Assembly: GCA_046290465.1 (NCBI GenBank)
Contig: JBKAGP010000001.1
Location: 2,816,001 to 2,880,000 of the forward strand
Direction of reading: 5' to 3'
Source of the DNA: Planctomycetota bacterium
Lineage (GTDB): Bacteria > Planctomycetota > UBA1135 > UBA2386
Length of the DNA stretch: 64,000 nt
In this document: in pieces, positions 37,890 through 64,000 of the stretch
Numbering within the stretch: position 1 is the stretch's first letter
How the letters are laid out: every line of letters begins with the position of its first letter
Position numbers and translations under genes: made by a program
The notes under the pieces: model-generated
What the model was told of the DNA's origin: nothing
Database searches by the model: none
What the model saw: only the letters and a program-made list of their open reading frames with translations

Positions 37890-37921
37890 CGCCGCACTGC
37901 ACTACCCCTCGGAGAAGCTAG

Positions 37922-39022: not shown

Positions 39023-41665
39023 TTACGGCACCATCGCCCCGCGGAACACCACGCCCGCGCGTCTCCCGCCGAACACCGTGACCAGGCGCCCGACGGTCGA
39101 GCCGCCAACCGACGAACCGCGCGCGATCCGGAACGTGTCGTAGCCGGTCGCCTCGACGGTCACCGTGACGTCCCCCACGTCCGCCTGCAGCGGCGTCTCT
39201 TCGTCGATCTCGAGCACGACGCCCCCCATGCCCCGCACGGGGATCGCGCGGTCTCCGTCGCCCTCACCGTCGATCGCAATGCTGTCCTCGAGCGCGAACC
39301 CGATGAACGGGTGCTCGCCGGTCGCGAGCACCCCGTAGCCGCCGTTCGATTCGAGTGCGGCGCCGAACGGGATCGACTGCCCCGCCTTGACCAGAACCTG
39401 GTGGAAGTCGACCTCGGGCACGTTCGCGATGAACTGGCGCAGCGCGTCCGGGAGCAGCTCCTGTGCGGCCGCCGGCTCGCCAGCTTCCGGGGCCTGGTAG
39501 TCCTCCGCGACGTCGAGCCACACGCCCATCGTCGACTCGCCGCCGGCGTCCGGGAACACGTACTCCGTCGGGAACGGGATCGGCGACGACGGGAGGTTGC
39601 CCTGGTTGGCGGCCGCCGGCGTGAGGTGGAACGGCGCCGCCGACGGGTCACCCTCGAACCACGGCGCCACGGTCGACGAGTTGGTGCCCTCGACGTCGCC
39701 GGCGTCGCCCCACCGGTTGCGATCGAACGTGATGCCCGAGCCCGAGTAGTTGAACTCCTCGAACACGCACCCGCGCACCTCGGTCCGGCCGGTCGCCGCG
39801 ATGCTGCCGAAGTCGACGTTGTGGAACGTGCAGTGGAAGAACAGGCAGTCGACCAGGCCACCGCCCGGGTTCATGTCCGACTTGTCGGGCCCGGCGTCGC
39901 CGCAGTCAACGAACGCCACGCGCTCCATGATCGGCGTCGAGCTCGCGAAGAAGCGCGTGCCCGTGCAGTCCTCGGACCGGATGCCCTGGATCACCGAGTT
40001 GGTGCAGGCCCCGTTGAACTGAATCACGTCGGGGTGCACCTGGTCGACGTAGGCGGACTGGTTCATCCCCTCAAGCGTCGCGGTGCCGACGTAGGTCGCG
40101 CAGTAGAGCCGGTGGCCGGCCAGGTCAGCGATCGGCGTCAGACCATGCGACGGCGCGTTGATCGTGATCGTGTATTCCGACCCATCGACACCGGCGGCCG
40201 TCACCTGGCGGCCTTCGAAGATCACCGGCCCCGAGCCCTTGGCGCCGTCGACCAGCGCGATGCCCCACCGCTCCGAAAGAACCAGCTCGGGGGCGTGGTC
40301 GGCAAAGTCGAGCTGCACCGACTCGTCCGGGTTGCCGAAGTTCGCCAGCGGGTTCACGTCGTAGCTCGCGGCGCGGCGAATCACGATCGTGTTGGCGTCC
40401 GGCGTCTCGAGGGAAACGCCGCTGTCGATCTCGCAGTCGATGTAGCCGCGAACCTCGGGGCCGTATCGCTGCCCCTTCGGCTTGCAGTTGGCCAGCATGA
40501 GCGAGGGGGCGTCGCTATTCGATTGCCAGCAGGTGGCCGTCCAGTCCTCGATCACGCAGTCGAGGCCGTAGCTGAAACTGACGAACGCGTTGTCGACACC
40601 GAGCGCACGAACGCACGTCGCGCCGAGGACTGCGCCCCCGCTGCCGCCGTTGTCGAGCACGTGGTCGAACAACCGGACCGTGTTCTCGGTGTAGCGCACG
40701 GACCAGCGGGTGGTGACCGCGTTGTGCGCCGGGTGCCCGAACACGCCGCCCTCGACGTGCAGCCACGTCGCGTTGGCCATGGCGGCGAGCGTGCCGACCT
40801 TGAGGTCGCCCTTGGTCACCTGCGGCGTCGACCCCTCGAGGATCATCAGGAGGCGCAGCTGCGCCGGGTGGCCGCTGCCGGTGTTCGGGAGCAGCCAGAG
40901 CGTGTCAGAGGAGTTGAAGCGGCCGTGCAGCCCCGCCTCCCAGATGACGGATCCGTTCGGATCCATGCCATCCCCGTTGCGCACGATCGTGGCGCCGTCC
41001 TCGACGCGCATCGTGACCCACCAGTGGTCCGACGTGCCGCCCTCGCAAGCCGGGTTACCTGGGCCGGCCCAGACGTGTTCGCCGGCCATCAGCACCACCT
41101 CGGCGCCGCCGAGCTCGCCCGTGCCGTTGGCGGCCTTGATGAACCCCTCCATCACCTGCAGCACGGCCGTGCCGCGGGTGAGCCCGTCGTTGGCGTTGTC
41201 GCCGCTGACGGGGTCGACGTAGATGACGCGCGTGTTCGGCCGCGTGTCGCTGTCCTTGTTGTTGTAGACCTTGAGCGTCGGCAGGTTCTCGGTGCTGCCG
41301 GCCGTCGTGGTCACGACCACTTCGATCGTGATGGTGCCGTTCGGCCAGTCGGCGGCGCGCAGGTCCATGCCGAACGCGAACAGGTCCGACATGGTCGTCG
41401 TGCCGGTCCTCGGGCTGACCTGAGTATTGTAGTTCGGCGCTCGCCTCGAACGCGCCGTGATCGGCGCCTGCGCCACCCCGTTGATCGTGAACACAACGGA
41501 GGCGATGTCGCCCTCTCCGCCCGTGCCGGTGCCCTCCAGGTTCGTCCACGAGACGACGTCGAGCGACACATATTCGCCGGCATCGTTGAGTTGTCGGCCA
41601 GTGAGCGTGGCCCATTGCGCGATCGGTGCAACCATACGTATTGACTCAAGCAGGTGCTGCGCCAA
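39023..41665 (-). CDS. Beta-helix/pectin-lyase-like protein fused to a C-terminal capsid cement/decoration domain
   Basis: IYVDPVSGDNANDG..T and HPDVIQF beta-helix motifs; the last 136 aa are 80/136 identical to 57097-57537. Start TTG 41665 or ATG 41635. Confidence 0.8.
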   Translation of the reverse strand: MAQHLLESIRMVAPIAQWATLTGRQLNDAGEYVSLDVVSWTNLEGTGTGGEGDIASVVFTINGVAQAPITARSRRAPNYNTQVSPRTGTTTMSDLFAFGMDLRAADWPNGTITIEVVVTTTAGSTENLPTLKVYNNKDSDTRPNTRVIYVDPVSGDNANDGLTRGTAVLQVMEGFIKAANGTGELGGAEVVLMAGEHVWAGPGNPACEGGTSDHWWVTMRVEDGATIVRNGDGMDPNGSVIWEAGLHGRFNSSDTLWLLPNTGSGHPAQLRLLMILEGSTPQVTKGDLKVGTLAAMANATWLHVEGGVFGHPAHNAVTTRWSVRYTENTVRLFDHVLDNGGSGGAVLGATCVRALGVDNAFVSFSYGLDCVIEDWTATCWQSNSDAPSLMLANCKPKGQRYGPEVRGYIDCEIDSGVSLETPDANTIVIRRAASYDVNPLANFGNPDESVQLDFADHAPELVLSERWGIALVDGAKGSGPVIFEGRQVTAAGVDGSEYTITINAPSHGLTPIADLAGHRLYCATYVGTATLEGMNQSAYVDQVHPDVIQFNGACTNSVIQGIRSEDCTGTRFFASSTPIMERVAFVDCGDAGPDKSDMNPGGGLVDCLFFHCTFHNVDFGSIAATGRTEVRGCVFEEFNYSGSGITFDRNRWGDAGDVEGTNSSTVAPWFEGDPSAAPFHLTPAAANQGNLPSSPIPFPTEYVFPDAGGESTMGVWLDVAEDYQAPEAGEPAAAQELLPDALRQFIANVPEVDFHQVLVKAGQSIPFGAALESNGGYGVLATGEHPFIGFALEDSIAIDGEGDGDRAIPVRGMGGVVLEIDEETPLQADVGDVTVTVEATGYDTFRIARGSSVGGSTVGRLVTVFGGRRAGVVFRGAMVP

Positions 41666-41719
41666 GGCCGATAGCCAAGGCCACTTCTCATCACGCGCTG
41701 GGTTTCCTGACCAGCGCGA

Positions 41720-41748
41720 AGGCGGCGGCGCGCTGGGCGCCGCCGCCT
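41720..41748. terminator. GC-rich stem-loop between the lysis genes and the cement-fusion gene
   Basis: AGGCGGCGGCGC-GCTGG-GCGCCGCCGCCT; no long U-tract. Confidence 0.45.
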
Positions 41749-41758
41749 ACTTCACGCG

Positions 41759-42034
41759 CTACTCGCGCGACAACGCCGCCTGCACGCCGGCGAGCGCCAC
41801 CTTGCCGATCCAGTCGGCGATGATGGTCTGCGCCGCGGCGGCCTCGGCGGCCGACAGGTTCGCGGCCTGCGCCGCGATGTGCTTCGCCTCGCGCTCGGCG
41901 CGCTGCGGGTCGGTCAGCGCCAGCGCCGCGACCTGCGTCGCGTCGGCGGCGATCTGCGCCAGCAGCTGCTGCTTGGCCGGGTCGGTGACTCGCGCCTTCA
42001 GCTGCGAGACCAGGTCGTCGAGCGGCGGGATCAT
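41759..42034 (-). CDS. Small Ala-rich helical phage protein
   Basis: Coupled (ATGA) to the upstream lipoprotein. Confidence 0.65.
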   Translation of the reverse strand: MIPPLDDLVSQLKARVTDPAKQQLLAQIAADATQVAALALTDPQRAEREAKHIAAQAANLSAAEAAAAQTIIADWIGKVALAGVQAALSRE

Positions 42035-42279
42035 CGCTTCACCTCACCGGTCTCGGTGCGGATGCGCCAGGTCTCGACCGTGCGGCCACGGCGCTCCTTC
42101 TCGACCGTCGTCAGCTCCGGGTCGGCCTCGACGTACTCGAGGTACTCGGGCGCGATCGTGTCGTAGGTCACGCGGTCGGCCTTGACGTAGGCGTCGGCGA
42201 CGCCGGTGCACGACGGCAGCACGCAGCAGCCCGCAACCAGCAGGAGAAGGAGAAGGGAACGTCTGATCTTCGGTTTCAT
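42031..42279 (-). CDS. Small phage lipoprotein (possible spanin)
   Basis: MKPKIRRSLLLLLLVAGC lipobox; located in the lysis position. Confidence 0.65.
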   Translation of the reverse strand: MKPKIRRSLLLLLLVAGCCVLPSCTGVADAYVKADRVTYDTIAPEYLEYVEADPELTTVEKERRGRTVETWRIRTETGEVKR

Positions 42280-43103
42280 GGCTTCGCAGTCGGTGGCCTG
42301 ACGGTCTCGAACACTTGCTCGAGCTCGATGATGAGCCCGCGGCAGCGGGCGGGGGATTCGAAGACCTGGCGCATCGCAGCAACGAACTGCGCGCGTTCGT
42401 CCTCGGGGATTGGTTCGAACCGGCCGGTCCGCATGCCGGGTTCCTGACTTTCGGGGTCGCCGTCGACCCAGAGCCGACGGCGGCCGAAGTTGATGCTCAC
42501 GTACCAGAGCTGGGCAGACGCTCGCCACGCGAAGGGCAGCACGATCGACGCGCACGTGCCCTGCTCTACGTACTGGTGCCTCAGCGTTCCGTGAGGTTGG
42601 CCCGGGTCGTCCGGGTCCTCTTCGACTGGGCATTCGAGCGCGACGCCGGTTCGGTTGGGCAGGCTCTCGAGCAGCCGGCCCAGGAAGTCGCGGTACCAGG
42701 AGTCGGCCTCGAATCGACGCCAGAGCTCGATCGTGTTGGGCTCGCCAGGGGCGGCGCGCTGCGCCTGGCAACGAACGGTGAGCGGGCCAGCGTTCCAGGC
42801 GTCACCACCGTTGTTCGCGGTGAGCAGCAGGCAGCGCTGAAACCCGCTCTCGGTGATCCACCGATGGACGACGGCCTCGATGGTGCGCACCCGGCGCATG
42901 TGCACGATCGACTCCTCGAACTGGATCTTGGCGTCGATCTTCGCGCTCTCGCGGCGTGCCAAGGCCCGGAAGCGCGTCGACAGCTCGCCGATCTTCGGCA
43001 CGATCTTGGTCAGCGCCACAACGGCCGCCATGACGACGGCTGCGATGCCGCCGATCCAGGCCATGGTGGTGACCGCCCAGGCGGGCATCTCGCTCGCGAG
43101 CAT
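42276..43103 (-). CDS. Single-TM protein with GAF-like soluble domain (possible holin)
   Basis: N-terminal TM, LLLTANNGG, YVEQGTCASIVLPF...YVSINF; follows the tail genes. Confidence 0.45.
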   Translation of the reverse strand: MLASEMPAWAVTTMAWIGGIAAVVMAAVVALTKIVPKIGELSTRFRALARRESAKIDAKIQFEESIVHMRRVRTIEAVVHRWITESGFQRCLLLTANNGGDAWNAGPLTVRCQAQRAAPGEPNTIELWRRFEADSWYRDFLGRLLESLPNRTGVALECPVEEDPDDPGQPHGTLRHQYVEQGTCASIVLPFAWRASAQLWYVSINFGRRRLWVDGDPESQEPGMRTGRFEPIPEDERAQFVAAMRQVFESPARCRGLIIELEQVFETVRPPTAKP

Positions 43104-43576
43104 CAGCCCCCACCTCCCCCCGCCACGTTCGCGTCGATCCAGTCGGCCAGCTCCTGGACGCTCTTGATGCCGCTGCCCACCAGCGAGCCGGACCAGTCGG
43201 CGCCGCTGATACTGACGGCTGTGCCCGCGTGGGCATGCCCGACATCGGACTTGTTCGCGAGGTAGCCGAGGAACGTCGCGGTCAGCGCGTTGAACAGCGC
43301 GTTCACCTCGCCGATCCGGACCAGGTGCTGCGGCAGGGATGCGGCGACGTCGCTGCTCGGCGGCGACGTGAAGGCCTGCGAGCCGTCGAGCGGTGCGAAC
43401 GGGCCGCCGGCGGCGTGCTCGATCGGCACCAGGTCGGCCGCCTTGACGCGCATCGCCGCCTGTCCCTGGTCGCCGAACACGACGAGTACGGAGTCGCCTT
43501 CGACGGCGCGCACCGTCCCGGCCACCGAGTAGATGGCGTCCGCGACGATCGGGTTGCCGTTCCGGTCGTTCGGCAT
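43103..43576 (-). CDS. Tail-fibre-associated protein
   Basis: ATG 43576 with TGATG coupling; KSDVGHAH fibre-type motif. Confidence 0.55.
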   Translation of the reverse strand: MPNDRNGNPIVADAIYSVAGTVRAVEGDSVLVVFGDQGQAAMRVKAADLVPIEHAAGGPFAPLDGSQAFTSPPSSDVAASLPQHLVRIGEVNALFNALTATFLGYLANKSDVGHAHAGTAVSISGADWSGSLVGSGIKSVQELADWIDANVAGGGGG

Positions 43577-44205
43577 CAGACGACCTCGACGACCGCCCGG
43601 AAGTTCGTGAGGGTCGTAGCGGTGCCGACCTTCGTCATCGTGACCTTGAGGACGTCGAGATCGGCGAGGCTGAGGTTCTGGTCGGGCGTCAGCACGTAGG
43701 CCGCGTCGGCCACGAACTCGGCGCCGCCGCCGACGCCTCCGAGCGCCGTGAACGTCCCGACGGTCCCGCTGAACAGCTCGACCGGTGAGCCCGGCGAGGC
43801 CGCCGGGCACTTGCTCAGGCCGACCTGCCACTCGTTGCCCGACGAGCTCGTCGATGCCGTGTCGGACAGAAGCACCAGGCGCTTGACCGTGCCGGGACCC
43901 CGCGAGGCCCCCGCGTACGCGGTGGCCGTCGCAGACAGCGATCCGGTGAGGCCGTCGACGACGAGCTGGTGCCGCAGGTCGCTGCCCACGAAGCCGCGCT
44001 CGTACCAGACGGAGTTCGTCGCGTCGCGCTGCTTCAGCAGCGGCGGCGACGTCGACGTGTCGAGCCAGAGCTGGCCGGCGATCGGGTTGCTCGGCGCGGC
44101 GTCGCCGCTGAACTGCGTGCGCAGAGACTCCAGGGCGTTGGCGACGTTGGTCTTGATCGCGGTGTTGAGCCGCAGGCTGCCGGTCGGGAGGATGAAGTTC
44201 TGCAT
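43576..44205 (-). CDS. Short tail fibre / receptor-binding-like protein
   Basis: FSGDAAPSNPIAGQLWLDTS motif; directly after the J-like gene. Confidence 0.6.
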   Translation of the reverse strand: MQNFILPTGSLRLNTAIKTNVANALESLRTQFSGDAAPSNPIAGQLWLDTSTSPPLLKQRDATNSVWYERGFVGSDLRHQLVVDGLTGSLSATATAYAGASRGPGTVKRLVLLSDTASTSSSGNEWQVGLSKCPAASPGSPVELFSGTVGTFTALGGVGGGAEFVADAAYVLTPDQNLSLADLDVLKVTMTKVGTATTLTNFRAVVEVV

Positions 44206-47200
44206 CAGAGTCGCGCCTCTACTCGCGCCAGTCGGATCCGTGGGTTGTGGGTCGTGCTCTCGCGTTCGACGCGGATGCGGAACTGCGCGTAGCGCGAGCT
44301 GCGGACGCCGTCCTCGTGCGGCGTGTCGGCACCGAAGGAGCCCGACGACGTGCGGAAGCGCGACTCGAGCACGATGTTGGTGTGGCTGCCGGCCTGGCCG
44401 GCGCGGCCGTGCACGAACTCGGTGTCGGGCAGGTCGTCGATGATCGTCGTGACGTCGTCGACCGTTCGCGACCAGTCCACGCCCGGCCGGCCCGGCGATG
44501 CATCGCGCCCGTCCACGGTTCGCCAGTCGAGCTCAGGGCTGCCCAGCAGGTCGGTGACGTCGTCCACGAGCTCGCTGCTGTCGACGGCGCCCTCCACGGC
44601 GATGCGCCACAGGAACGGGCCATCGAACCCGGCGTCGTACTCGTCCGACTCGTAGGCTCCCTCGAGCGCATCGCCGTCCAGGGCCAGAACCCCCTCGTCG
44701 TTGACGGTGTCGGTGTGGGTGCCGTCGAAGTCGTCGTCGGTCCCGACGAAATCGACGTCGGGCCCCGCCGCGGCCGGGATGAACGGGGTCGGGTTGCTCT
44801 GCCGGCCGTCCTCGGCGACGGCCGCGATCAGGAACGAGTCCCCCGCGGGCGCCGCCGGCCAGGTCACGCGCGGGCCAGCGACCCGAGCCAGCACCGGTGC
44901 ACCGACCCAGCCGTCCCCCGCCCGGATCTCGTAGGCAATCGCGCCGGCGACGGCGCTCCACGACCAGGTCACGACGCCGTTGGCCTCGTTCTCCGTGATG
45001 CCGGTGACCGGCGGGACCGTCAGGGCCATGAACTCCGGCACGGTCACCAGGGCGCGCACGCCCGTCTCTGCGGGCTGATTCGCGTCCGAGCCCAGCTTGT
45101 CGAGCACGACCGAGATCTCCAGCTGAGCGCCAGCCTGGAGCCCCCGGACGTCCACACCGTTGCTGTCTGTCGAGCCGAGCGACGACCAGGTGTCGCCGCC
45201 GACCGGCCGCGCGAACACCCGGGCGGTCTCGGCGCGCCGCTCCGGCGGCTTGGCGAACGTGATCCGGTGACCATCCCGGATACGCACGACGCGGATCAGC
45301 GAGACCACGGGGTCGACGGCGCCGTCCTCCTGGGCCTCGACGGCCAGGAAGTCGGTCGAGAGTCCTTCGTCGTACTCCTCCGGATCGATGGCGTCGTAGA
45401 TCTCGGGCACCCACTCGAGCGCGGTGATGGCGTGGGTGAAGTCCTCGCGCGCCTCGATCGCCGTGATGCGGTAGGTCTCGACGACCTGGTCGTTCATGCC
45501 GAGCACCGCGTCGGCGCCGGCCGCGACGGTCACCGCCTCGTCCAGCGTCAGGATCGTGAACGTCCGCCCCTTGATCGTCGTGCTCGCCATGCTGTCGATG
45601 CCGACGTGCAGCGGCGCGCCCGACTCGGTCCGGAACACGACCGCATCCCATGGATCGCCGGCGGCGTCGTGGTCCACGATCACCGCTGCCGAGGCGGTGA
45701 CGTCATCGACGACGACGCAGGCCTGCGGAACGACCGCCCCGAACGGTCGGAGCACGTTGTTCTCGACGTCGATCAGGTCGCCGACCTGCGACGCCAGGGC
45801 CCATCGCCCCGTCACGAAGTCGATCTTGCGGGTGACCAGCCGGTTGACCAGGTGCCGGTAGATGCCCTCCCGCCAGACCTGCGTCGGCCGCGTGACGCTG
45901 AACAGCTGGGCTTGCTCGGGGCGGTACTTGTCGGCGACCTCGTCCGGCTGACCAGGGTCGTCCAGCGTGCTGCTCGGATCCTGGACAGGGAAGGCGTCCT
46001 GCTGCCAGAACTGCTCCTCGTTCAGGAACTGGAAGATGTAGGCCGTCGGGCGCGAGCTGCGCGGCAGCCACGTGACCGTCAGGTCCTGCACGGACGACGA
46101 AGAGAACAGCTGCGACGGCGCCTTCGCCGGGACGCTGACGCTGCCCTGTGCGTGCGCTGCCGCGAACTCGTAGACGATCGAGACCTTCCCGTTCTGGAAG
46201 ACCGGCGCTGCGCGACCGGCCTCGCAGATTGCCAGCACCCACTCCCAGGCGGGGCGCGACTCATCGAGCACCAGGTCGCACGTGAACTGCGGCTCGCCCC
46301 ACGGGTTGGCGGGGTTCGGGTCCCGGTCGCACCACACGGCCCAAGCAGCGAACGAAGGGAGGTCGAGGTCGTCCTCGCTCAGGTATTGCCCCAGGCCCCA
46401 TGGCTGGGTCAGGAAGTCGAGCAGGATCCACGCGGGGTTCCGACCAGGTGGGTAGTCGTGCCAGTCGAACGGGGCCGCCGGCACGTCCCAGCAGCGCGGC
46501 GAGAATCCCTGAACCGCGTCCCACACCCGCACCTTGACGCCATCGACCCTGACCTTGAACTGCGGCAGGCCGCCCGACCACTTGCTGGACGCCTGCAGGT
46601 TGAAGGCGGCGAGCGCGATGCGCGGATAGGCGAGCTGGTGCTCGATGGCGGTCGTCACCTCGCGCCACGTGATCGCACTGCCGCCGTTCTGCGGCGCGCC
46701 GGACTCGCGGCGCACGCGGAACTCGAGGTCCCCGCTGACCGGCGCCGCGAAGCGCCCCGTCACCGTGCGGACCTGCGGCGACGTGATGTCGGCGAAGTCC
46801 GGCGCGAACACGAACGTCTCGTTGTCGGACGTGCTCCACGGGGTGACCGGCTGCAGCTGACGCCACGCCGTCTCGCCGACGAACCGCCAGTTCAGCTTCA
46901 GGCTGCACTCGAACACCTCGTTCTCGCCGGTGGGCCCGAGCGAGTAGAGGCCCACCGGCGCCTCGAGCACGAAGCTGACCGTCGACACCTCCTCGGCGGA
47001 CGCGACGGTGAAGCTGCGCTCCTCGCCGAAGCCCTCGATCGCCTCGTTGACCCCGTAGGACGTCGAGACGTTGGAGAACGGGAACTCGAGCGGCGTCTGG
47101 CTCAGGGTCCCGGGCCGGATGCTGAGCTGCACGCCGGCACTCGGCTTCTGGAAGAACTGGAACGAACCCGCCTGGAACACGCGCGCATCGGCGGACGTGA

Positions 47201-48191: not shown

Positions 48192-48568
48192 CGGCGCCAG
48201 ACCTCCTGCGGCGTCTTCGAGAACCGGTTCAGGGGGCGCGACCAGGTGCCAGGACTCGGGTGCGACGACCACACGAAGCCGTCGTGCACGATTGCGGACC
48301 AGTGGTGCTCACCGAAGAACAGCAGCACGTCACCATCACGGAGCGGCGCGTCACCACGACGCCAGCCCTCGGGGAACCCGGCGTCTCCCGGCGATTTCCC
48401 CGGCTGGCGGTAGTGCTGCGCCAGCGTCTCCCAGGGATCCGGGATCCCCTCGCCGCGCTGCTCTAGGACGAAGAGCACGACGCCCAGGCAGTCGATGCCC
48501 GCTCCGATCTGGCGGCCACCGAGCTCGTACGGAGTGCGCAGCAGCTTCCTTCGCAAGTCGGCGTTCAT
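48185..48568 (-). CDS. NlpC/P60 tail assembly protein (gpK-like)
   Basis: TPYELGGR...GIDCLG, GDVLLF, H. Confidence 0.85.
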   Translation of the reverse strand: MNADLRRKLLRTPYELGGRQIGAGIDCLGVVLFVLEQRGEGIPDPWETLAQHYRQPGKSPGDAGFPEGWRRGDAPLRDGDVLLFFGEHHWSAIVHDGFVWSSHPSPGTWSRPLNRFSKTPQEVWRRC

Positions 48569-49263: not shown

Positions 49264-49264
49264 C

Positions 49265-51043
49265 CTAGGCGGTGAACACCAGCTCGGTGACCTCGGTGGT
49301 GAGCTCGACCCGACCATCTGGCAGTCGAGACTCGGAGAACGGCGTGCGCTGCGTCACGGCGACCGACTCCCCACCGCCTGGCGTGGGGAGCGCGAAGTTT
49401 CGATTCTCACGCAGGAACACCGAGACGGCGGCGCCGTGGCTGGCAGCCAGCGGCCCCCAGGTGAGGGCGAGCACGCGCCGCGGCTTGATCCAGTTCGGCC
49501 AGGTCCGCGAGTAGCCGGCGCGCGCGCGGATGCGTCCGATCTCGTGCCCAGAGACCCGGACTGGCGTGGCTGCAATCGGCGGATAGGGCGGCGACGGCAG
49601 AGCGCCGACGAGCGGGCCCTCGCCGTGGAGCGAGAGTTCGATCGGTGTCGGGATCACCCACTTCGGAGCGCTGAGCGACTGATCGTGCACGCGGTTGAAG
49701 ACAGCGTGCGAGATCTCTGTCACCGACGCCGGTGCGAACGGCCCCGAGTTCTGGAACCAGAACCGCACGAAGTGGAGGCGAGCTTCGTCGACCGCTTCGA
49801 ACGGAAGCGTGCGCGCCTGCAGGTCAAGAACGGGGATCCGCTCCTGGTAGCCGAAGGACGCGGCGCCCTCGACGTAGGCGAACGCAGACGGGTAGGTGGC
49901 GCCCTGGTCCTCCAAGGCCGTGTGCGCACGGAAGCCGTTCCCGCCCGGCTCAAGTACCTGGAACGTCGCGCAGGCGAGCTGCAGCACGCCAACGGGCGCC
50001 GCCGGCGCTGACACCTCGTGCCGGCTGTACGGCGTCCACGGTTGGCCGTCGTAGAGCTCCGTCGCCTCGCCGTGCGAAGCCACGTAGGACCCCGCCTGCG
50101 GCGTGAGACCGAGGTCGACCCGGATCGCCAGCATCGTGTGGGCCTGCACCACGGGAACGACGCTCGCGATCTGGTCGGTGAGCCGCATCCGCCCGAAGGC
50201 GTCGACGACCTCGGTCTCCAGGCGCTGCATGCTCCCGATCGTGGTCACGACCGGTACTTCCGAAGGCGTCGGGACTCCGGTTGGGTGCGGGCGGTTCGTG
50301 CGCGCACTCGACTCGACCACCCACGCACCAGACCGCGCAGCGCCGTGCTGGAGGTCGGGCGGAGGCACGGTCGGCGATGGCTGCATGTAGGTCGCGTGCA
50401 GCAGGCACCAGGACTGCGAGCTCGCGCCGATGGCGTTGCTGCTCGTCCAGTCGAGCGCGCCAGACTCGTCCCGCTCAGCAAGCACGAGGTCGAGCGCTTC
50501 GAGCTCGTCCATGTCGGCCCAGAACCACCTGACGTCGCGAACCAACGGCGGCTCCGTCGCACTTGCCGCGTAGGCCGGCGTGTCGCCGTTCCAGTTCAAG
50601 CGCGCGTAGAGGCCGAACTCGGCGGCACTCGTGTTCGTCGTGGCGCCGAACGTGGGGTCGCTGATCGCCGGTCGGCCCGTTCCGGCCGACTGCTGCACCA
50701 TGATGAACGTGAAGGGCATCCCGGCCCACAGCGTGGTCTTCAGCGACTCATGCCGTAGCGAGAACCGCGCGCGATGGAACGTGCTGCGCGCGCCCCCCGT
50801 CAGCCCCATGCAGACCTCGAGCACCCCGCGCTCCGGCGTCGCACCGACGGTCCGGACCTGGCAAACGAACCCGGTGACGACGAGCGCCAGGCGCTTGCTC
50901 GCGCCGGCCGGCAGGTGACCCAGCGGGATCGCATCGACCTGCTGCCAGTCGCTCGGCGCGTTCGACGTCGGCGACGACGGGAACAGCGTCACGTTGACGT
51001 CAGCGGGCGCCCTGCGAAGGCCGAAGAGCCGTTCGTCCGCCAC
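49265..51043 (-). CDS. Large protein with C-terminal gpM/distal-tail-like domain
   Basis: Occupies the gpM slot between tape measure and L; C-terminal RRVLALTWGP...FALPTPGGGESVAV. Confidence 0.6.
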   Translation of the reverse strand: MADERLFGLRRAPADVNVTLFPSSPTSNAPSDWQQVDAIPLGHLPAGASKRLALVVTGFVCQVRTVGATPERGVLEVCMGLTGGARSTFHRARFSLRHESLKTTLWAGMPFTFIMVQQSAGTGRPAISDPTFGATTNTSAAEFGLYARLNWNGDTPAYAASATEPPLVRDVRWFWADMDELEALDLVLAERDESGALDWTSSNAIGASSQSWCLLHATYMQPSPTVPPPDLQHGAARSGAWVVESSARTNRPHPTGVPTPSEVPVVTTIGSMQRLETEVVDAFGRMRLTDQIASVVPVVQAHTMLAIRVDLGLTPQAGSYVASHGEATELYDGQPWTPYSRHEVSAPAAPVGVLQLACATFQVLEPGGNGFRAHTALEDQGATYPSAFAYVEGAASFGYQERIPVLDLQARTLPFEAVDEARLHFVRFWFQNSGPFAPASVTEISHAVFNRVHDQSLSAPKWVIPTPIELSLHGEGPLVGALPSPPYPPIAATPVRVSGHEIGRIRARAGYSRTWPNWIKPRRVLALTWGPLAASHGAAVSVFLRENRNFALPTPGGGESVAVTQRTPFSESRLPDGRVELTTEVTELVFTA

Positions 51044-53839: not shown

Positions 53840-53852
53840 GGGATGCGGCTCC

Positions 53853-55274
53853 TTACAGCTGCGAGAAGTAGAGGTCGTCGTCGCCCGACTCGGCGATGCG
53901 CATCGGCCGGAGCGTGACGTCGAACACGGAGATGCCGTTGGCGTCCGAGAGGGACACCTCAGCGACCTGGCAGTGCGGCGCGACGACGGACAGCGGGTTG
54001 CCGTTGGCGTCGACCAGGACCGCCGCGAACCGCACCGCGGTGCCGTTGTCGCGCATCGCTTCCCAGTCGAAGGCACCGTTCACGTTGTCGACGGTGATCT
54101 GGATCGTCGAATCGCGGTCCGTGATGTTCGCGCCGGTCGCGCCGCCGGGACTGTTCGCGTCGAGGTTCGGAGAGACGGTGCCGGCGTTGTCGAGGTTGAT
54201 GCTCTTGATCGGCAGCCGGTAGACGTTGGCGTCCGAGTCGTACTCGCCGACTGCGACCACAGCGCCGAGCAGTCGCGGGCCCTTGACCGAGCTGGTCGCG
54301 CTCGAGGCCGCCGGAGCCACGTCGAGGTCGGAACCGATGTCGCCCTGGAACGTCCAGCTGAACTGCAGCGGCTCGCCGACGCTGCCCTGCATGCTGAAGG
54401 TGCCGCGCGCGCCCTTCAGCTCCCGCCGGCGGCCGTCGAGGTTGTGCCAGAAGACGAGCGTCGGGCCCTTCACGACGGTCGGCGCCGCGTTCAGCGTGGC
54501 GGTGTTCGTCCCGTCGGTCACGACGTCGCCGTTCGCGATGCTGCCCCAGAGCAGGGTGACGTTCAGGTCGTCGAGCGCCGTGACCTCGACGACCGTGAGG
54601 CCGCCCACGAGTTCGCCGCCGCGCTCGATGTTGTAGCTCTTGCCCGCGGCCGCGCCGGTCAGGTCAGCGGCGAACCCGATCTGCATCAGCGACTCGCTGG
54701 TCGGCGCGTAGCTGAACGAGTTCGCCCGCGTCGCAGCGCCCGAGGGCGTCGTGCCGGCACCAGACGACGCACCCGTCACCGCGTTCACAGCGTTGAACGC
54801 CGACGAGCTCGTGCGCGCCACGACCAGGACGTCGCCGGACGAGGTGGCCTTGTCGACGGAGCTGCCCCCGCTCGTGATCGCGACCACGATGCCCTCGGCG
54901 TCGCTCGTCGCCTGGGTCACGCGCTCGCCGACGACGAAGTAGCCGGTGCCTCCGGAGACGCTTCCGCAGGTCAGGTTCTGGACCGCCGGCACCGCGGCAT
55001 AGCCGCACGCCTTGAGCAGCCTTGCGAACTCCGGTTCGGCCGCACCGCCGCTGCCGCGGAAGTCGGTCTGGAACGACAGCTCGCGGGTCTTCCGGCCGGG
55101 AGGCTGGAACGCTCCCGAAAGCGTCGCGCCGCTCGGCGTCCGGTCGAGGAAGTCCGTCGAGTCGGAGATCGACGGGTCGTAGACCAGGATCGCATCGGAT
55201 CCGGTGAGGGTTCCGCCGCCGCCAGGCGTGGTTTCGATCGCTCCGAGGAGCTGCTGCTTTCGGGTGAGGACCAT
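53853..55274 (-). CDS. Major tail tube protein with inserted domain
   Basis: LLGAIETTPG, LLKACG, LKGARGTFSM...FSWTFQG; position before TAC/TMP. Confidence 0.8.
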   Translation of the reverse strand: MVLTRKQQLLGAIETTPGGGGTLTGSDAILVYDPSISDSTDFLDRTPSGATLSGAFQPPGRKTRELSFQTDFRGSGGAAEPEFARLLKACGYAAVPAVQNLTCGSVSGGTGYFVVGERVTQATSDAEGIVVAITSGGSSVDKATSSGDVLVVARTSSSAFNAVNAVTGASSGAGTTPSGAATRANSFSYAPTSESLMQIGFAADLTGAAAGKSYNIERGGELVGGLTVVEVTALDDLNVTLLWGSIANGDVVTDGTNTATLNAAPTVVKGPTLVFWHNLDGRRRELKGARGTFSMQGSVGEPLQFSWTFQGDIGSDLDVAPAASSATSSVKGPRLLGAVVAVGEYDSDANVYRLPIKSINLDNAGTVSPNLDANSPGGATGANITDRDSTIQITVDNVNGAFDWEAMRDNGTAVRFAAVLVDANGNPLSVVAPHCQVAEVSLSDANGISVFDVTLRPMRIAESGDDDLYFSQL

Positions 55275-55277
55275 GTC

Positions 55278-55622
55278 TCAGGAGTGCGCCAGCAGGACCT
55301 CGAGCTCGCCCGAGACGCTGGCGGTCGTCGGCGACGAGTAGGAGAACTGCGGCGGGGTCAGCCACCGCACCTTGATCGCCTGGCTCTCGCCCGGCGGTGT
55401 CCAGTCGAAGGCGCCGACCCCGTGCTCGAGGTAGTGGCGCCAGATCGCGTCCGCGACTTCCCTGCGCTTATCCGACCAGGTCAAGAGCAGCTCGCGCGCG
55501 CAGAGCTCGGCGTCGACCGTCTGGCCGAACACCAGCGGTCCCGAGTCCGATGTCTCGAAGCCGGGATCGGGGCGTTCCGCGACCGCGCTCGGCGGCGGCA
55601 GGCCTGTCGCTGGAATGCTCAT
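55278..55622 (-). CDS. Stand-alone gpM-like minor tail protein
   Basis: RELLLTW...YLEHGVGAFDWTPPGESQAIKVRW, resembling the lambda gpM F.WTPP motif. Confidence 0.7.
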   Translation of the reverse strand: MSIPATGLPPPSAVAERPDPGFETSDSGPLVFGQTVDAELCARELLLTWSDKRREVADAIWRHYLEHGVGAFDWTPPGESQAIKVRWLTPPQFSYSSPTTASVSGELEVLLAHS

Positions 55623-56759: not shown

Positions 56760-57097
56760 TACTCGAGCACCTCCACGATGATCCGTGCCTGGTCCTCGCC
56801 GACGACGCGAACCACGCAGCACGGAACGGCCGCTTCGCCGATCCGGACCGGCAGCACGATCCGGTCCTTGCCGACGACCACCGACTCGACGCCCGTTGTC
56901 GCGTGCCGCGGCATCGCCACGACGCAGCTGCGCCGGTTGATCTCGCCGTCGGGCCCGTCGAAGTCGCGGCGCACGGCCGCGTTGAACGTGCGCTCCGGCG
57001 ACCCGTCGCTGAACCGGTACGTGATCGACTCGGCAACGCCGTTGGCGTTGCCGTAGATCTCGCGCGCGTGGCGCTGCTGTAGGTCGCGGAGGCCCAC
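56759..57097 (-). CDS. Head closure / head-tail joining protein (gpFII-like)
   Basis: GTG 57097 with TAGTG coupling; AESITYRF; position. Confidence 0.6.
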   Translation of the reverse strand: MGLRDLQQRHAREIYGNANGVAESITYRFSDGSPERTFNAAVRRDFDGPDGEINRRSCVVAMPRHATTGVESVVVGKDRIVLPVRIGEAAVPCCVVRVVGEDQARIIVEVLE

Positions 57098-57537
57098 TAC
57101 GGGACCATCGCCCCCTTGAACAGGACCGCGACCCGCGAGCCGCTCAGGACGGTCACGATCTTGCCGACCGTCAAGCCGGTGATCGCGCTGGCGCGCTCGA
57201 TGCGGAACGTGTTGTCGTCGGTCGCCTCGACAGTCACGGCCGCCGCGCCGACGTCCGACTGCAGGGCCGTCTCGGTCGTGATGTCGAGCTCGATGCCGCC
57301 CTGCGCGCGCACGCCGATCGTCCGATCGCCGTCCGCCTCGCCGGACACCGCCAGGCTCGTCTCCAGCGCGAAGCCGGCGAACGTGCCCGCGCCCGAGGCC
57401 ACCTCCAGGTAGCCGCCGTTCAGCTCGAGGCACGCGCCGGCGTAGATGGTCTGACCCGCCTTGACCGGCATCTGCTGCAGGTCGATTTCGGGGACGTTCG
57501 CCAGGAACGGCGGGACTCGCTCTTCGGTCATTGCCAT
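57097..57537 (-). CDS. Capsid cement/decoration protein
   Basis: PVKAGQTIYAGA...FAGFA...GDRTIGVR..G pattern; directly after the major capsid gene. Confidence 0.8.
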   Translation of the reverse strand: MAMTEERVPPFLANVPEIDLQQMPVKAGQTIYAGACLELNGGYLEVASGAGTFAGFALETSLAVSGEADGDRTIGVRAQGGIELDITTETALQSDVGAAAVTVEATDDNTFRIERASAITGLTVGKIVTVLSGSRVAVLFKGAMVP

Positions 57538-57598
57538 TTGGATCTCTCCTTGTGTGGATCTGGGTGGTGGGCGGCGCGGGGACGTGCCGCCCGATCGA

Positions 57599-58528: not shown

Positions 58529-58587
58529 GTCTGTCTCCTGTTCCGTGTCTGTCGTTTGTCCTGTTCCGTCAGAACCGGATCAGCGCA

Positions 58588-60018: not shown

Positions 60019-61709
60019 GCCTGCTCTGCCTCCGGTTCCTCGTTCTCGTCGTCGTCGGCGCCCTCGTCTTCGAGTTCGCCCTCGTCGCCGACCTGCGGGT
60101 CCAACTCGTCCCCTTCCTCGGGCGGGTCAGGAGGCTCCGTCGCCGGCGGCGCCGACGCGGCTCCCTTGCCCAGGAGCGAGCCGGGCTTCAGCCCGAGCTC
60201 CTCCTCAATCGCCTCCGCCTTCTTGATGTACTCGGCGTTCTTCCGAAGCAGCTCCTCTGCGTCGAGGCCGAGGCGCGCCGCCTCGTCGTACGGCGTCGAG
60301 AGGTGGTTCTCGATGGCAATGCGGCTGCTCTCGATCTCCTTGACGGGATCGACCCAGCCGTAGGCCGGCGGCATCCAGCGGACAGCGAGGAACGGCTTCG
60401 GGTTGTCCCGGAAGCCGGGCGGCATCGGCAGCGTGCCGTCCGAGATCTTCGAACGGATGACGTTGGACCACCACGGCATGCAGAACTGCCGGATCAGCAT
60501 CGCGCGCAGCGCGTCGAACCCGCGGCGGCACTCGAGCAGCATCGAACGCGCGCTGCTGTAGTTCATGCGGCCGAGGTCCTTTGAGACGAGCTCGTAGGAC
60601 AGGCCCTGACTCGCCCAGATCGCGCGAAGGATGCGCGTGACGAACGCGTCGAACTGCGCGCCGGGCCGATTCGGCATGAACGGCTCGATGCTCTCGCCTT
60701 CCTCGAGGTACTCGATCGTGCCGGCCTCGAGGCGCTGCAGCAGCTTGCCCTCGTCGTTCGGACTGCTGCCCGGGCGGAAGTCGCCGCCGTCCAGTTCGGG
60801 CGCACGCTTCACGAACATGGCGATATTGCTGCTCGCGCGCGCGGCGATCAGCTCGCTGCTCAGATACTCGTGCAGGTGGCGGTTGTAGGGCAGCGCTGCC
60901 GCCAACCATGGGACGCCGCGCGTCTGGCCCGGGCGATCGCGCCGGAAGACGTGCTGCACCATGCTGTAGCCGTTCTCCTCTGCCACGACGTAGCTGCCGG
61001 TGAGCCCGGTTCGTGCACCGAAGGAGGCGTCCGCTGGGTGCGAGTCCAGGAAGTGGTATCGGACCGGCTGGCCGCGATCGCCGAGCTCGACGCCCGCGCG
61101 CATCCGATCCGTGTCGATGGCGTTCGGGGACTCCAGCCGGTCGGAGTCGATCAGCTCGCAGAACAGGTCGTTGCCGTCCTTGACCAGGTGCCCGAGGCCT
61201 TCGCCGTCCTGCATCAGCATCCGAACACCGATTCGCTGCAGGTCGCTGAACGAGCCGTAGTTGGTGGCGTCGGCGTGCGGCGCCCACTCGGACCACGCGG
61301 CTTCGCATGCGCCGCGCCAGTCCTGACACTCGCCTTCGGACATGCCGGTCGCCTCGGGCGTGCAGATGCTCTGCGGCAGGATCCCCTTGCCGACCGTGTT
61401 CTCCTCGAGCACGCGCACGGCCGCGGCGGCGTGCGCATCGTCGCGAACCATCGTGCGGGAGGCATCGCGCAGGATCTGCAGGTTCGGGATCGCCTCCGCG
61501 TCGGCGCTGCCGCTGTAGCTGCGGCTGTTGGTCCTGCCGATGCGCGCCGCCTCGTAGGTCAGCAGCCCCTGCGCTCGCAGGCGATGCTGACGCATCTCGA
61601 GCCCCATCTTCGGCATGAAGGTGCCGACCACCCCGTCGACGATGCGCCGCACGGCGCCGCCGACGCCGGAGTAGATCGATTGCAGCTGCTGTTCGGTGCT
61701 CCTCCCCAT
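60015..61709 (-). CDS. Portal protein, lambda family
   Basis: YEAA, DGEGL, RPGQTRGVPW, NYSSAR, GWVDPVKE. Confidence 0.95.
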   Translation of the reverse strand: MGRSTEQQLQSIYSGVGGAVRRIVDGVVGTFMPKMGLEMRQHRLRAQGLLTYEAARIGRTNSRSYSGSADAEAIPNLQILRDASRTMVRDDAHAAAAVRVLEENTVGKGILPQSICTPEATGMSEGECQDWRGACEAAWSEWAPHADATNYGSFSDLQRIGVRMLMQDGEGLGHLVKDGNDLFCELIDSDRLESPNAIDTDRMRAGVELGDRGQPVRYHFLDSHPADASFGARTGLTGSYVVAEENGYSMVQHVFRRDRPGQTRGVPWLAAALPYNRHLHEYLSSELIAARASSNIAMFVKRAPELDGGDFRPGSSPNDEGKLLQRLEAGTIEYLEEGESIEPFMPNRPGAQFDAFVTRILRAIWASQGLSYELVSKDLGRMNYSSARSMLLECRRGFDALRAMLIRQFCMPWWSNVIRSKISDGTLPMPPGFRDNPKPFLAVRWMPPAYGWVDPVKEIESSRIAIENHLSTPYDEAARLGLDAEELLRKNAEYIKKAEAIEEELGLKPGSLLGKGAASAPPATEPPDPPEEGDELDPQVGDEGELEDEGADDDENEEPEAEQA

Positions 61710-64000
61710 CAGTCAAACGCGACCCTCACACTGCCGCCGCCGCGCTTGCGCGCGGCCTGGTGCTGCTGGTGCCTCTGCAGCTTGATGAGCTCGTCGGGAC
61801 TCCGACGCTGCACGGAGTCGCCCGTGGCCGTCGTGTAGCTCGCGACGTCCGGCGAGTCGTGCATGGCATCGGTGAGCGCCTGCTGCTGCTCGGGAGTCGC
61901 CGTCGGACCGTCTTCGCCGCCGGACTCGGCGGGCGCCGCCGGCGGGCTGTCCCCGCCTTCCTCCGGCGCGTCCCCGCCGCCGTCGCCGTCGCCGTCGCTC
62001 ACCGAATCGAACGTGCCCGCAGTCGTCGATCCGTAGATCACCGCGGCCGACCCCGTCGGATGCGACGGCCAGGTCGCGGCCCCATCGAGCGCGGCGTCGA
62101 TCAGGAACCCCTTGCTGATCATGTTGCGCGGGGTCAGGTGCAGCCCGTTGAACTCGCGGTACGGCAGATACGGCATGTTGCCGAACGCGACGTTCGCGAC
62201 GCTGAGGTCGAGCGCGAGGTTGGACGGATCGACGAGGATGCCCCCCTGCATGGAGGCTGCTTGCGCCTGCTGGGCCGCCCGGATCCGCGAGACCTGCTCG
62301 GTGCTGCCGAACGGCGTGCCGGCGTGCAGCTGCACGACGACGCGCGCAGGCGTGTCGCCGCCGACTAGGCCGTCCGTCAGGAACGTCTGGTCGATCGCCT
62401 CCCAGAGGTTGGCGAGGTTGGCGGCGTAGTCGTTCGACTGCGACAGGTCGGCCTCGCCGTTCTCCCAGATGACGGCGACCACCTTCGGCATGTAGCGCTT
62501 GTTCGCCGCGAGGCCGCCGTCGCCGTCGCCCACGTTGACCAGACGGTCCAAGCACGCGGACCACTGCTGCTTGGCGTAGACCCAGCAGGGCGGCGGCCCC
62601 ACCTTCACCGCGATGTCCGAACCCGGCGTGCCGGCGGGGTAGAGCGTCGTCCGGATGCCGGCCTGCACCACCAGCTTCGAAGCTGTGCAGCTGGCCGCGA
62701 TCGCGTAGACGAAGGCGTGCTGGTCGTCGTGGTAGCTCGCGTTCGAGCTCGCGAGCTGCAGCGGGATCAGCGGCAGCGCCGCGCCGCCCTCATCCTGCTG
62801 GCCAATCAGGCCGCCGCTGGTCCCGAACAGGCTGCCGAACACGGCGCCGGCGGCCGACGTGATCTCGACCGTCGAGCCGACCGTCGTGAACGTCAGGTCG
62901 CCGCGCGTGACCGTGCCCTGCGACGCCGTCGGCGACCAGGTCGCGTAGCCGTTCGTGTCGGCCGACACCGACGACGAGTTGATGCCGATCTTGAACAGCA
63001 GGACCTTGCCGAAACGCTCGCGCGCGCGCGCCATGATCGGGATCTCGGGACCGCAGTCGCCCGCGTTGTCCCACGCCGTGTTCGCGCCGTCGCCGCCGAT
63101 GTCGAAGCGCTGGATCTGGCCGTCGACGAAGTTCCAGTGCATGACCTCGTCGGTCGTCGTGTCGACGCCCGACAGCGGCCAGTGCTCGCTCGAGTGGTAG
63201 AGTGTCGGGTCCGCGTCCTGCGGCAGCCACTTCGAAGGGTCGATCAGGCCCTTCACCTGCGACTGGCCCAGGTAGACCACGATCGCGAGCTGCTCGAAGA
63301 ACGATTCGGGGAACGCCACGTCGAGCCCCGACATCTTCCGCCAACCCGCGAGGCCGAGGTTCAGGTAGTCCTCGGGGCGCAGCCACTCGTTGTCGTCGAC
63401 GAACGCGCCAGCGGGCCCCGACGTCAGCGCGACGCCGCCAATCATCTGGTAGTTCGGGCTGCGGACGTGGTTGTGGCTGCTGCTCGTCTGGTCGGCCGAG
63501 TGCCAGTTCTCGCGGATCCGCTTGATCGCCTCGGCCGCGGTGAAGGCCGCGAACGCCGACGTCGGCTGGTAGCCCTGCTCGTCGCTGCGGTGCGACAGGA
63601 TCACGACGTCAGCGCCGATCTCGAGGTTGAAGTCGCTGTCGGTGAGCAGCTCGGCGACCAGGTCGGCGTAGTCCTGCGCGCCGGGGCCGAAGATCGCCTT
63701 GTAGCCGGAGCTGTAGGTGAACGGTGCAGCACCGTTCATCCAGTCGTCGACGTCGCCGGCCGCCGTCAGGCAGGCCTCGAGTCCGCGCAGCGTGGTCCAC
63801 TCGCCGGTCCACGGGAACAGGGCGACCTTGCGCACCTGCGCGGCGCCGCCGGGTTGGCCGGCGGCGTCGTCCCGCGCGGCGATGAAGCGCGCGCGCATGT
63901 TCTCGTAGTGCAGGCTGCCCTTGCGCCACCCGAAGACGGTCGAGTCGGCGGTCGCGGTCGCGCCGCTCGATGCCCCCGTGATCGTGTCCGTCGCCGCGAG
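61709..64000 (-). CDS. SGNH/SASA (sialate O-acetylesterase-like) protein fused to a C-terminal gpW-like domain; 5' end beyond window
   Basis: Frame is open to 64000. YLGQSQ, GPEIP, IWENGEAD, NGLHL motifs; acidic linker; VASYTTATGDSVQRRSPDELIKL; TGATG-coupled to the portal gene. Confidence 0.75.
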   Translation of the reverse strand, partial: LAATDTITGASSGATATADSTVFGWRKGSLHYENMRARFIAARDDAAGQPGGAAQVRKVALFPWTGEWTTLRGLEACLTAAGDVDDWMNGAAPFTYSSGYKAIFGPGAQDYADLVAELLTDSDFNLEIGADVVILSHRSDEQGYQPTSAFAAFTAAEAIKRIRENWHSADQTSSSHNHVRSPNYQMIGGVALTSGPAGAFVDDNEWLRPEDYLNLGLAGWRKMSGLDVAFPESFFEQLAIVVYLGQSQVKGLIDPSKWLPQDADPTLYHSSEHWPLSGVDTTTDEVMHWNFVDGQIQRFDIGGDGANTAWDNAGDCGPEIPIMARARERFGKVLLFKIGINSSSVSADTNGYATWSPTASQGTVTRGDLTFTTVGSTVEITSAAGAVFGSLFGTSGGLIGQQDEGGAALPLIPLQLASSNASYHDDQHAFVYAIAASCTASKLVVQAGIRTTLYPAGTPGSDIAVKVGPPPCWVYAKQQWSACLDRLVNVGDGDGGLAANKRYMPKVVAVIWENGEADLSQSNDYAANLANLWEAIDQTFLTDGLVGGDTPARVVVQLHAGTPFGSTEQVSRIRAAQQAQAASMQGGILVDPSNLALDLSVANVAFGNMPYLPYREFNGLHLTPRNMISKGFLIDAALDGAATWPSHPTGSAAVIYGSTTAGTFDSVSDGDGDGGGDAPEEGGDSPPAAPAESGGEDGPTATPEQQQALTDAMHDSPDVASYTTATGDSVQRRSPDELIKLQRHQQHQAARKRGGGSVRVAFD

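Follow-up and report, generated by a model that had tools for sequence, protein, structure and literature searches.

The stretch analysed here (G000:C1:2816001-2880000; the window) comprises 64,000 nucleotides of a one-contig, 6.59-Mb planctomycete genome, and all coordinates below are relative to the window. It carries a lambda-like siphoprophage of a Planctomycetota host, in which three minus-strand open reading frames (ORFs) share the same layout, with an N-terminal cargo, a linker, and a virion structural domain that forms a C-terminal anchor. These are a neck fusion (61709-65245, 1178 amino acids (aa), continuing beyond the window), a tail-tip fusion (49265-51043, 592 aa) and a cement fusion (39023..41635, 870 aa from the ATG at 41635). 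The named homologues and the related loci used for comparison are all from Planctomycetota. The original prediction had recognised this design three times, with gpW-like, gpM-like and cement anchors, and all three ORFs and anchor identities stand. Two of its boundaries need revision: the gpW-like fusion had been confined to 61709-64000 and really extends to 65245, and the cement fusion had been given as 39023-41665, where the TTG at 41665 is probably too far upstream and the ATG at 41635 is the likely start, since homologues align from that Met.

Fusion genes in a lambda-like prophage

The prophage is bounded by attL in a tRNA-Phe gene (32917..33006, plus strand), where a 59-bp repeat starts at 32948; the partner of the repeat lies at window-equivalent position 75674, beyond the window, which leaves about 42.7 kb between the repeats. 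The ORF beside attL (32942-34201) reads by eye as a tyrosine integrase. The late operon occupies the minus strand in a lambda-like order: terminase gpA, a Zn-ribbon gene, the gpW-position gene, a lambda-type portal, an S49 protease, a Mu gpT-like capsid, cement, the FII- and Z-position genes (named from their position), terminator, a 114-aa gene, tail tube, chaperones, tape measure, the gpM-position gene, gpL, NlpC/P60, an I+J fusion, small lysis-like genes and, last, the cement fusion.

Assembly errors, or read-throughs in a decaying prophage, are a very improbable source of the fusions. In its favour, the cement fusion is found in this genome only, and most of it seems to have been lost from close relatives. 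Against this origin, the GC content at third codon positions is uniform along all three fusion ORFs (0.81-0.98), and no start codon with a Shine-Dalgarno sequence is present at any fusion junction. Across the cement junction, a Logan contig of run X1, which may be the source sample, is identical to the window (0 differences), and the ratio of nonsynonymous to synonymous divergence between the fused and free cement copies is about 0.48 (dN 0.34, dS 0.70). The gpM fusion is covered by gap-free contigs of X3, from another study, and the gpW and gpM fusions both recur in independent assemblies, on many contigs, so that errors removing stop codons are largely refuted for these two. The att sites and the gene set are intact.

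The neck fusion

The gpW-position gene lies between the terminase and portal genes, and its stop codon overlaps the portal start codon. Its last approximately 60 residues (61709..61891, minus strand) are predicted to form a gpW-type head-tail adaptor, composed of a helix-hairpin-helix and a portal-hooking C-terminal arm that ends in RVAFD. A profile of nine anchor sequences matches residues 110-178 of the R4C adaptor (8GTD_M) at E 9.8e-9, the next match being at E 0.009. While the window's own 70-aa anchor piece alone has no match in PHROGs, five of the seven other anchor pieces scanned match head-tail adaptor families (four from fusions and one free among the matches), with orthologous anchors matching phrog_118/2545/5774 at E down to 5e-6. 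Among 8000 scored candidates, the nine-anchor profile found 35 proteins of 136-2000 aa, the window's own included, a range that leaves shorter free forms outside. The anchor is at the very C-terminus in all 35, with a Phe within the last four residues in 34, and 31 of them are 509-1879 aa in size. A weak gpW profile match in G206 (E 5e-4) was dropped as a non-phage protein.

Nine related loci show the gpW-position gene, which is a fusion of 632-1083 aa in six (L013, L014, L019, L021, L022/L023 and L037) and a free small gpW protein in three (L039, L012 and L041); genome G330 has a free 69-aa form at the same gene position. In a tree of the 35 anchors, which is based on 62 columns and has weak support overall, the free G330 protein is nested in a supported clade of fusions, and the cargo class of the window requires at least three label changes across well-supported branches. 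The full neck fusion has no tblastn match in 50,697 GenBank phage records and no usable match in the Atlas, and a single-sequence AlphaFold model of the 1183-aa neck ORF was not used (predicted local distance difference test, pLDDT, 31.7). A small Zn-ribbon gene between terminase and the gpW-position gene (L001:5309-5533, window-equivalent 65309-65533) is kept in the relatives that cover this region.

The genome contains a single gpW-like match, and a conserved internal start is absent before the anchor in all seven neck fusions checked; therefore, any virion must use the product of the neck fusion gene. The other two anchors are not preceded by a conserved internal start either. In the R4C phage, twelve adaptor subunits assemble outside the capsid; each has an Ig-like N-terminal domain attached through a flexible loop, and its C-terminus hooks into the portal clip (PMC10276861). 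The C-terminal arm of lambda gpW likewise binds the portal, through beta-augmentation (PMC10721106). Because the C-terminus of a gpW-type adaptor is buried in the portal in R4C and lambda and the N-terminus is free, the cargo is expected at the N-terminal end, as observed. By likeness to R4C, the neck fusion would form a dodecamer in the virion. The anchor is preceded by an acidic, Gly/Pro-containing linker of 47 aa (61892..62032) with a contour length of up to about 17 nm (16.9 nm). In a rough sphere estimate, twelve 113-kDa heads need a ring radius of about 12.3 nm, which is inside the linker contour. Free paralogs had been proposed as relief from steric crowding, but the neck, which is the most crowded site (12 x 113 kDa), has none; here it is the linker, instead of a free paralog, that would solve the crowding.

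The cargo comprises two SGNH-like domains. The first, degenerate domain lies partly in the window (63299..64000, the ORF continuing to 65245), has beta-rich insertions, and is devoid of the catalytic Ser and His. The second (62051..63298) is a SASA/CE6-like SGNH domain with an insertion, and carries GQSQ (Ser662), ENGE and NGLH (His1036), the block-V Asp being replaced by Asn. Among the 16 sequences of the window's class, GQS is found in 13 and the Ser in 15; the Glu of block III is present in 16/16 and Gln in 7/16, and both the block-V His and the Asn that precedes it are found in all 16. A seven-sequence profile of the domain matches the CE6 structure 2APJ (E 6.5e-9), 1ZMB (E 0.0014) and NanS (E 0.22), and NanS also lacks the block-V Asp (PMC9487903). 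The second domain is thus probably an O-acetylesterase of the SASA/CE6 type, as predicted from its sequence, in line with the earlier view that two of the three cargos look glycan-acting; by the present analysis, these are this one and the putative beta-helix of the cement fusion.

An alternative, which we consider improbable, is that the cargos are non-catalytic, and act as adhesins or stabilisers on polysaccharide (algal or biofilm matrix) or as braces of the neck against the capsid, with the esterase folds retained as binding domains. Consistent with this, the first SGNH-like domain has lost its Ser and His, the second Ser is also gone in 1/16 homologues, and three homologues (P0025, P0030 and P0032) carry only a beta module of about 95 aa. 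The lectin-like cargo at the tail tip, the precedent of the R4C adaptor, and the carbohydrate-binding modules (CBMs) of lactococcal 936 phages, which are pure binders on Dit, tail tube and neck (PMC6669499), point in the same direction. Against it, the second domain retains its Ser, Glu and His although overall identity is 22-35%, which argues for catalysis by this domain.

The cargo on the gpW anchor varies between relatives, as anticipated in the original prediction. At 60% mutual coverage, the cargos fall into nine clusters, with 15 window-like sequences, 7 of about 690 aa, 4 of 660-770 aa, 3 of about 165 aa, 2 with CBM5/12, and 4 single sequences, one of which is probably a fragment. SASA matches are found in 12 of 33 homologues, and CBM5/12 in two. 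Unfused counterparts of the cargos occur in phages with a free gpW, as a 1005-aa LamG-containing protein just upstream of gpW (L012:5355-8372), and as a free two-SGNH protein after the cement/capsid gene (L011:13848-15593 and L041:7582-9321, on the opposite strand in L041).

The tail-tip and cement fusions

The anchor of the tail-tip fusion (residues 482-592; 49265..49600, minus strand) is located in the canonical position of a distal tail protein (Dit), between tape measure and gpL. An AlphaFold model based on an eight-sequence alignment has a mean pLDDT of 52.8, with 68-90 over residues 520-590 and less than 50 over residues 311-477. In this model, residues 482-590 resemble lambda gpM (8IYK_M; Z 9.3, root-mean-square deviation (rmsd) 3.6, 89 aligned) and the Dits of T1 (Z 8.7), Sf11 (Z 8.3) and RcGTA (Z 8.2), which suggests a Dit/lambda gpM fold, i.e., a tail-tube-like beta-sandwich with a flanking helix. 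The gene after the tape measure is a fusion of 581-642 aa in each of the eight related loci with a complete copy (L011, L014, L015, L023/L045, L038, L043/L044, L046 and L047).

The cargo of about 480 aa (49601..51043) begins with a jelly roll (residues 5-180) and leads into a Pro-rich linker at residues ~455-495. The first domain resembles the fibre CBD of cyanophages A4 and A-1(L) (Z 8.3 and 8.2), a TNF-like lectin (Z 8.2) and CBM15 (Z 7.3). Over residues 5-451, low-confidence parts included, the top fold matches are single-chain TNF/C1q trimers (Z 9.1-10.6, rmsd 4.2-4.5), and the cargo is possibly composed of three tandem jelly rolls, of which the third is not confidently modelled. Since hhalign detects no sequence repeat among the three putative domains, the likeness to single-chain TNF-like trimers is only a lead. 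Foldseek finds no match to the model in the PDB at E <= 0.001, and diffuse jelly-roll matches in BFVD. The fold points to putative lectin-like binding modules of TNF/C1q type, rather than to the carbohydrate-modifying enzyme that had been expected at the tail tip, although likeness of fold does not by itself establish function.

A free gpM-like protein of 114 aa is encoded between terminator and tail tube (55278..55622, minus strand), and had been regarded as a cargo-free paralog of the fused anchor. It looks gpM-like (phrog_14 E 0.034, a weak match) and has no match in a PDB sequence search, but it is not a close paralog; BLAST against the fused anchor gives E >1, and hhalign a probability of 35% (E 4e-4) with 23% identity over 64 columns. 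In 11 related loci, four of which were used to build the model, the gene again lies between terminator and tail tube, and not after the tape measure. It appears to be an old conserved duplicate and not a trimmed copy of the fused gpM. A mixed hexamer of this protein and the fused gpM, giving steric relief at the tail tip, seems unlikely, even if both are gpM-like (phrog_14 E 0.034-0.036), every locus that spans the two genes has both, and the 3-fold ring of lambda gpM contains two conformers (PMC10721106). Apart from the low identity, the gene lies outside the tip module, and crowding is mild: a ring of about 4.9 nm radius is enough for six 51-kDa cargos, and cargo-bearing Dit hexamers are normal in 936 phages, which have two Dit hexamers (PMC6669499). 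Because of these two hexamers and the additional tip ring p140 that T5 has beside Dit (PMC11313276), we find it likelier that the 114-aa protein forms a separate tube-fold ring.

The adjacent major tail tube protein (473 aa; 53853..55274, minus strand) contains a beta-rich insertion of about 140 aa (residues ~95-240), and is probably a fourth decorated structural protein. The insertion has 'F.VGE.VT...GA' modules like ones seen by eye in the neck cargo; it is longer in one relative, and the protein reaches 583 aa in L041.

In the cement fusion, a C-terminal anchor (39023..39439, minus strand) follows a linker of 20 aa rich in Ala, Pro and Glu (39440..39499) and a cargo of about 710 aa (39500..41635). 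A free cement/decoration protein is encoded directly after the major capsid gene with a strong Shine-Dalgarno sequence (57097..57537, minus strand), and in those related loci whose sequence includes the cement gene, it adjoins that of the major capsid protein. Over 136 aa, the fused anchor is 59% identical to free cement (E 4e-49), and it keeps all 23 invariant columns of a 17-row alignment that includes the fused copy itself; here, the cargo-free paralog claimed earlier is indeed retained. The family matches phrog_1731 (E 3.6e-9), and its members match PF22758 (E 0.021), PF09956 (E 0.0099) and PF23982 (E 0.011), all below the curated cut-offs, while a sequence search of the PDB gives no match.

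The proposal that the two cement proteins form mixed oligomers is favoured by modelling. A trimer of two free and one fused subunit has a closed three-subunit interface with an ipSAE of 0.87 (0.00 for the best of three controls), contact agreement of at least 97% between runs, and partner pLDDT of at least 91; the score mark is reached by 116 of 157 solved pairs and by 2 of 215 mismatched pairs. The fused cement can accordingly be modelled in mixed trimers with free cement, a result tempered by the fact that the pass may reflect the likeness of close paralogs and that the fused domain was itself a row in the alignment of chain 1. Replacement of the first residues in the fused copy may explain why a free paralog is needed.

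The cement fusion is restricted in its distribution. Among 1303 longer proteins searched for a cement domain, the window fusion itself is the only one found, and among the 339 genomes of the class the fusion occurs in G000 only. No cement ORF in 12 related loci exceeds 173 aa from stop to stop, and the cargo is absent from all five related loci with 5-8 kb of sequence beyond gene J. No match was obtained by tblastn against the same GenBank phage records, or when viral contigs were scanned with the cement and capsid proteins singly. A weak cement profile match in G183 (E 5.6e-4) was dropped as a non-phage protein. No promoter-like site was found near the fusion. The X3 reads contain a joint from 39207 to 41767, weak with 37 letters on its short side, and the 74-aa protein P0075 (87% identical; 8 + 2 contigs) starts at this joint; it thus seems that the cargo was lost in close relatives. 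One X2 contig includes the cargo, and its alignment ends at the linker. The three fusions hence differ in age, which speaks against one coordinated system as first proposed; the gpW and gpM fusions are lineage-wide, and the cement fusion is a recent, dispensable add-on.

Cargo exchange and proposed function

The cement cargo is likely a right-handed beta-helix, a tentative assignment in which a conserved VHPDxxQ motif and a YVDP motif, which we take to be DUF1565-like, are noted. It has 71 homologues at E <= 0.001, 19 of them at <= 1e-30, and none has a cement domain. The matches stop at the same linker, where the homologues end or continue with different C-termini. P0053 combines the beta-helix cargo with the whole SGNH cargo and a gpW anchor, and in P0061 the cargo is followed by tandem SGNH domains. 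P0056 and P0058, two of nine cargo homologues submitted to NCBIfam, match the spike base NF048002 of gene transfer agent (GTA) type above the cut-off. In P0069, P0081 and P0106, the cargo is joined to a common C-terminal domain of about 150 aa, which has no match in Pfam, PHROGs, NCBIfam or PDB sequences. Its pattern presumably resembles that of tail terminator proteins, and the domain is a candidate for a further anchor. Many other homologues have short Arg-rich or low-complexity tails. The closest homologue, P0054 (53%), is devoid of the cement domain, and its longest contig equals in length that of a member of the closest neck-fusion cluster, which suggests that both come from one phage. 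Judged from these sequences, cargos are swapped on the gpW anchor, and the same cargo sits on different anchors.

In the reading that we favour, and regard as rather probable, large glycan-directed modules would be carried at the N-terminus by essential or semi-essential virion proteins, which form the C-terminal anchors. At the neck, twelve gpW-type adaptors would dock below the portal through their C-terminal hooks and helices, and the 47-aa linker would give the twelve esterase heads the reach to surround the neck as an external collar, where the second SGNH domain could strip O-acetyl groups from surface or matrix polysaccharide while the dead first domain and the beta modules bind. At the tail tip, the jelly-roll modules on a homohexameric Dit ring would be reversible carbohydrate-binding adhesins, with the free 114-aa gpM-like protein in a ring of its own. 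On the head, a low-copy fused cement would join free cement in mixed trimers and show the beta-helix, which may bind or cleave polysaccharide. The esterase collar, the lectin-like tip heads and the few beta-helix domains on the head would together bind and de-acetylate or cut the host glycan coat or matrix, with full-length proteins presumably incorporated and a likely benefit in crossing glycan coats. More speculatively, and with less confidence than we place in this function, Planctomycetota phages might follow a general cargo-linker-anchor grammar, in which glycan-acting domains that terminate in a linker are recombined onto any small C-terminal virion anchor available (the gpW adaptor, Dit, cement, the spike base of GTA type and one or more ~150-aa domains), so that one enzyme moves between neck, capsid face and vertex, around a fixed core formed by the 1.5-MDa, 12-copy acetylesterase collar of the essential DNA-plug ring.

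Several observations weigh against such a display of glycan-acting domains. The window SGNH domain itself matches Pfam SASA (PF03629) at E 0.13 and 12.3 bits, compared with a gathering score of 24.8 that is reached by four of the 33 homologues and by L013, and its block III reads NGE and not QGE. For the cement cargo, the Pfam Beta_helix match is weak (E 0.086; 3e-5 in one of 48 homologues), the Atlas scores of 0.84-0.89 are below 0.9, with beta-helix families in most of the named rows, and no catalytic residues were identified in it. Part of the tail-tip cargo is the poorly modelled stretch noted above. The tail tip, where adsorption takes place, is distant from the neck, and the authors of the R4C study assign the extra domain of the adaptor to stability, not adsorption (PMC10276861). 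Beta-tulip cements grip the capsid by an N-terminal arm (PMC7602432), which is the cargo-bearing end here. Most homologues of the beta-helix cargo are without a recognised anchor, and the G680 homologue is chromosomal, with an N-terminus resembling a signal peptide, from which it follows that this cargo is not always virion-bound.

In an alternative that we consider unlikely, the anchors remain in the particle while the cargos are severed at the exposed linkers, at lysis or later, and then work as soluble enzymes, either removing matrix in the path of progeny or providing sugars to surviving lysogens. A precedent that also counts against display is the NanS-like esterase gp84 of phi24B, which is processed at linkers so that only the anchor is found on the capsid (bioRxiv 10.64898/2026.04.10.717836). 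The 47-aa, low-complexity gpW linker, and the anchor-free two-SGNH proteins of L011 and L041, two related phages in which gpW is free, would also agree with release. The linker sequence, however, is not conserved as a cleavage motif, its length suits the crowding estimate, and a 12-copy fusion limits the yield of enzyme, to which display is the better fit.

Decoration of structural proteins with carbohydrate modules is already known, and comparison with the systems described underlines what differs here. Like the neck fusion, the R4C adaptor (PDB code 8GTD; PMC10276861) has a homologous gpW-type tube domain, a C-terminal hook, a dodecameric state and an N-terminal extra domain on a flexible loop; its extra domain is a 106-aa Ig-like domain thought to be stabilising, whereas the present cargos are enzyme-like, 45-190 kDa in size, and vary between relatives. 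In gp84/NanS-p of temperate phage phi24B (bioRxiv 10.64898/2026.04.10.717836), a SASA-family esterase is tied to a small virion-binding domain, but that anchor is an N-terminal DUF1737 on capsid hexons, accessory and cleaved, in contrast to a C-terminal, essential anchor at the neck. The lactococcal 936 phages, with evolved Dits, TpeX and neck passage structures (PMC6669499), bear carbohydrate modules on Dit, tail tube and neck as shuffled 'bricks'. Their CBMs are inserted in Dit or placed on a separate neck protein, and the hosts are Gram-positive, while in the present phages, of Planctomycetota, a minimal gpM, the adaptor itself and cement each bear cargo fused to the N-terminus, probably including enzymes. 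The phi29 head fibre gp8.5 and chimeric gpD/SHP oligomers (PMC7602432) provide examples of a decoration base with a projecting part, and of related decoration proteins that mix; in gp8.5 the base is N-terminal and the fibre C-terminal, unlike the C-terminal base, globular cargo and retained free paralog found here. Lambda gpW and gpM (PMC10721106; 8IYK) correspond in fold, gene position and, by inference, ring role (12-mer adaptor and 6-mer Dit), but at 68 and 109 aa they are cargo-free.

Among the titles and abstract openings listed in a literature search of incomplete coverage, no report describes a gpW-type adaptor that bears an enzyme-sized cargo or SGNH domains, or one cargo that occurs on more than one type of anchor; nor did the search return any account of these planctomycete phages or any structural phage study for Planctomycetota hosts. 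If the proposed arrangement is true, an essential head-tail adaptor, among the smallest of virion proteins, carries enzymes 10-25 times its size, and constitutes a natural 12-copy display site for large proteins. The sequences provide direct evidence of one cargo moving between virion anchors, and testable predictions on the encounter of phages with planctomycete surfaces, where O-acetylated glycans could be a barrier or a foothold. They are also a source of candidate esterases, lectin-like modules and beta-helix proteins for assay.

The remaining prophage genes show further variation. At 44205-48272, gpI and gpJ form a single 1355-aa protein (phrog_32 at 96-185 and phrog_31 at 380-1049), in which residues ~265-380 are missing from several relatives. 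The X1 and X3 contigs both differ from the window at 44327 and 47189, each change being Asp to Tyr in the J gene, possibly due to assembly errors or strain variants. Two genes after J (43103-44205) encode a conserved 209-aa protein, with about 50% identity in relatives, and a product varying from ~157 to 435 aa that is fibre-like in L038. In the head module, a scaffold/protease is fused to the capsid protein in L037 (15852-17912), cement is upstream of capsid in L041 (9357-10726), and a different protease precedes a common C-terminal scaffold in L013, L021, L022, L043 and L047. By the integrase, an accessory block (35861-38791) encodes an Xre repressor, a membrane protein, a BRCT-like protein (phrog_3989) and an SDH-type serine protease on the plus strand, and a small secreted Ig-like protein on the minus strand. 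Small phage-derived elements with shuffled remnants at L008:17543-20000 and L018 are decayed prophages or satellites; among such remnants, G052 retains a protease, partial cement and tape measure, and G319 retains cement, a small terminase and J.

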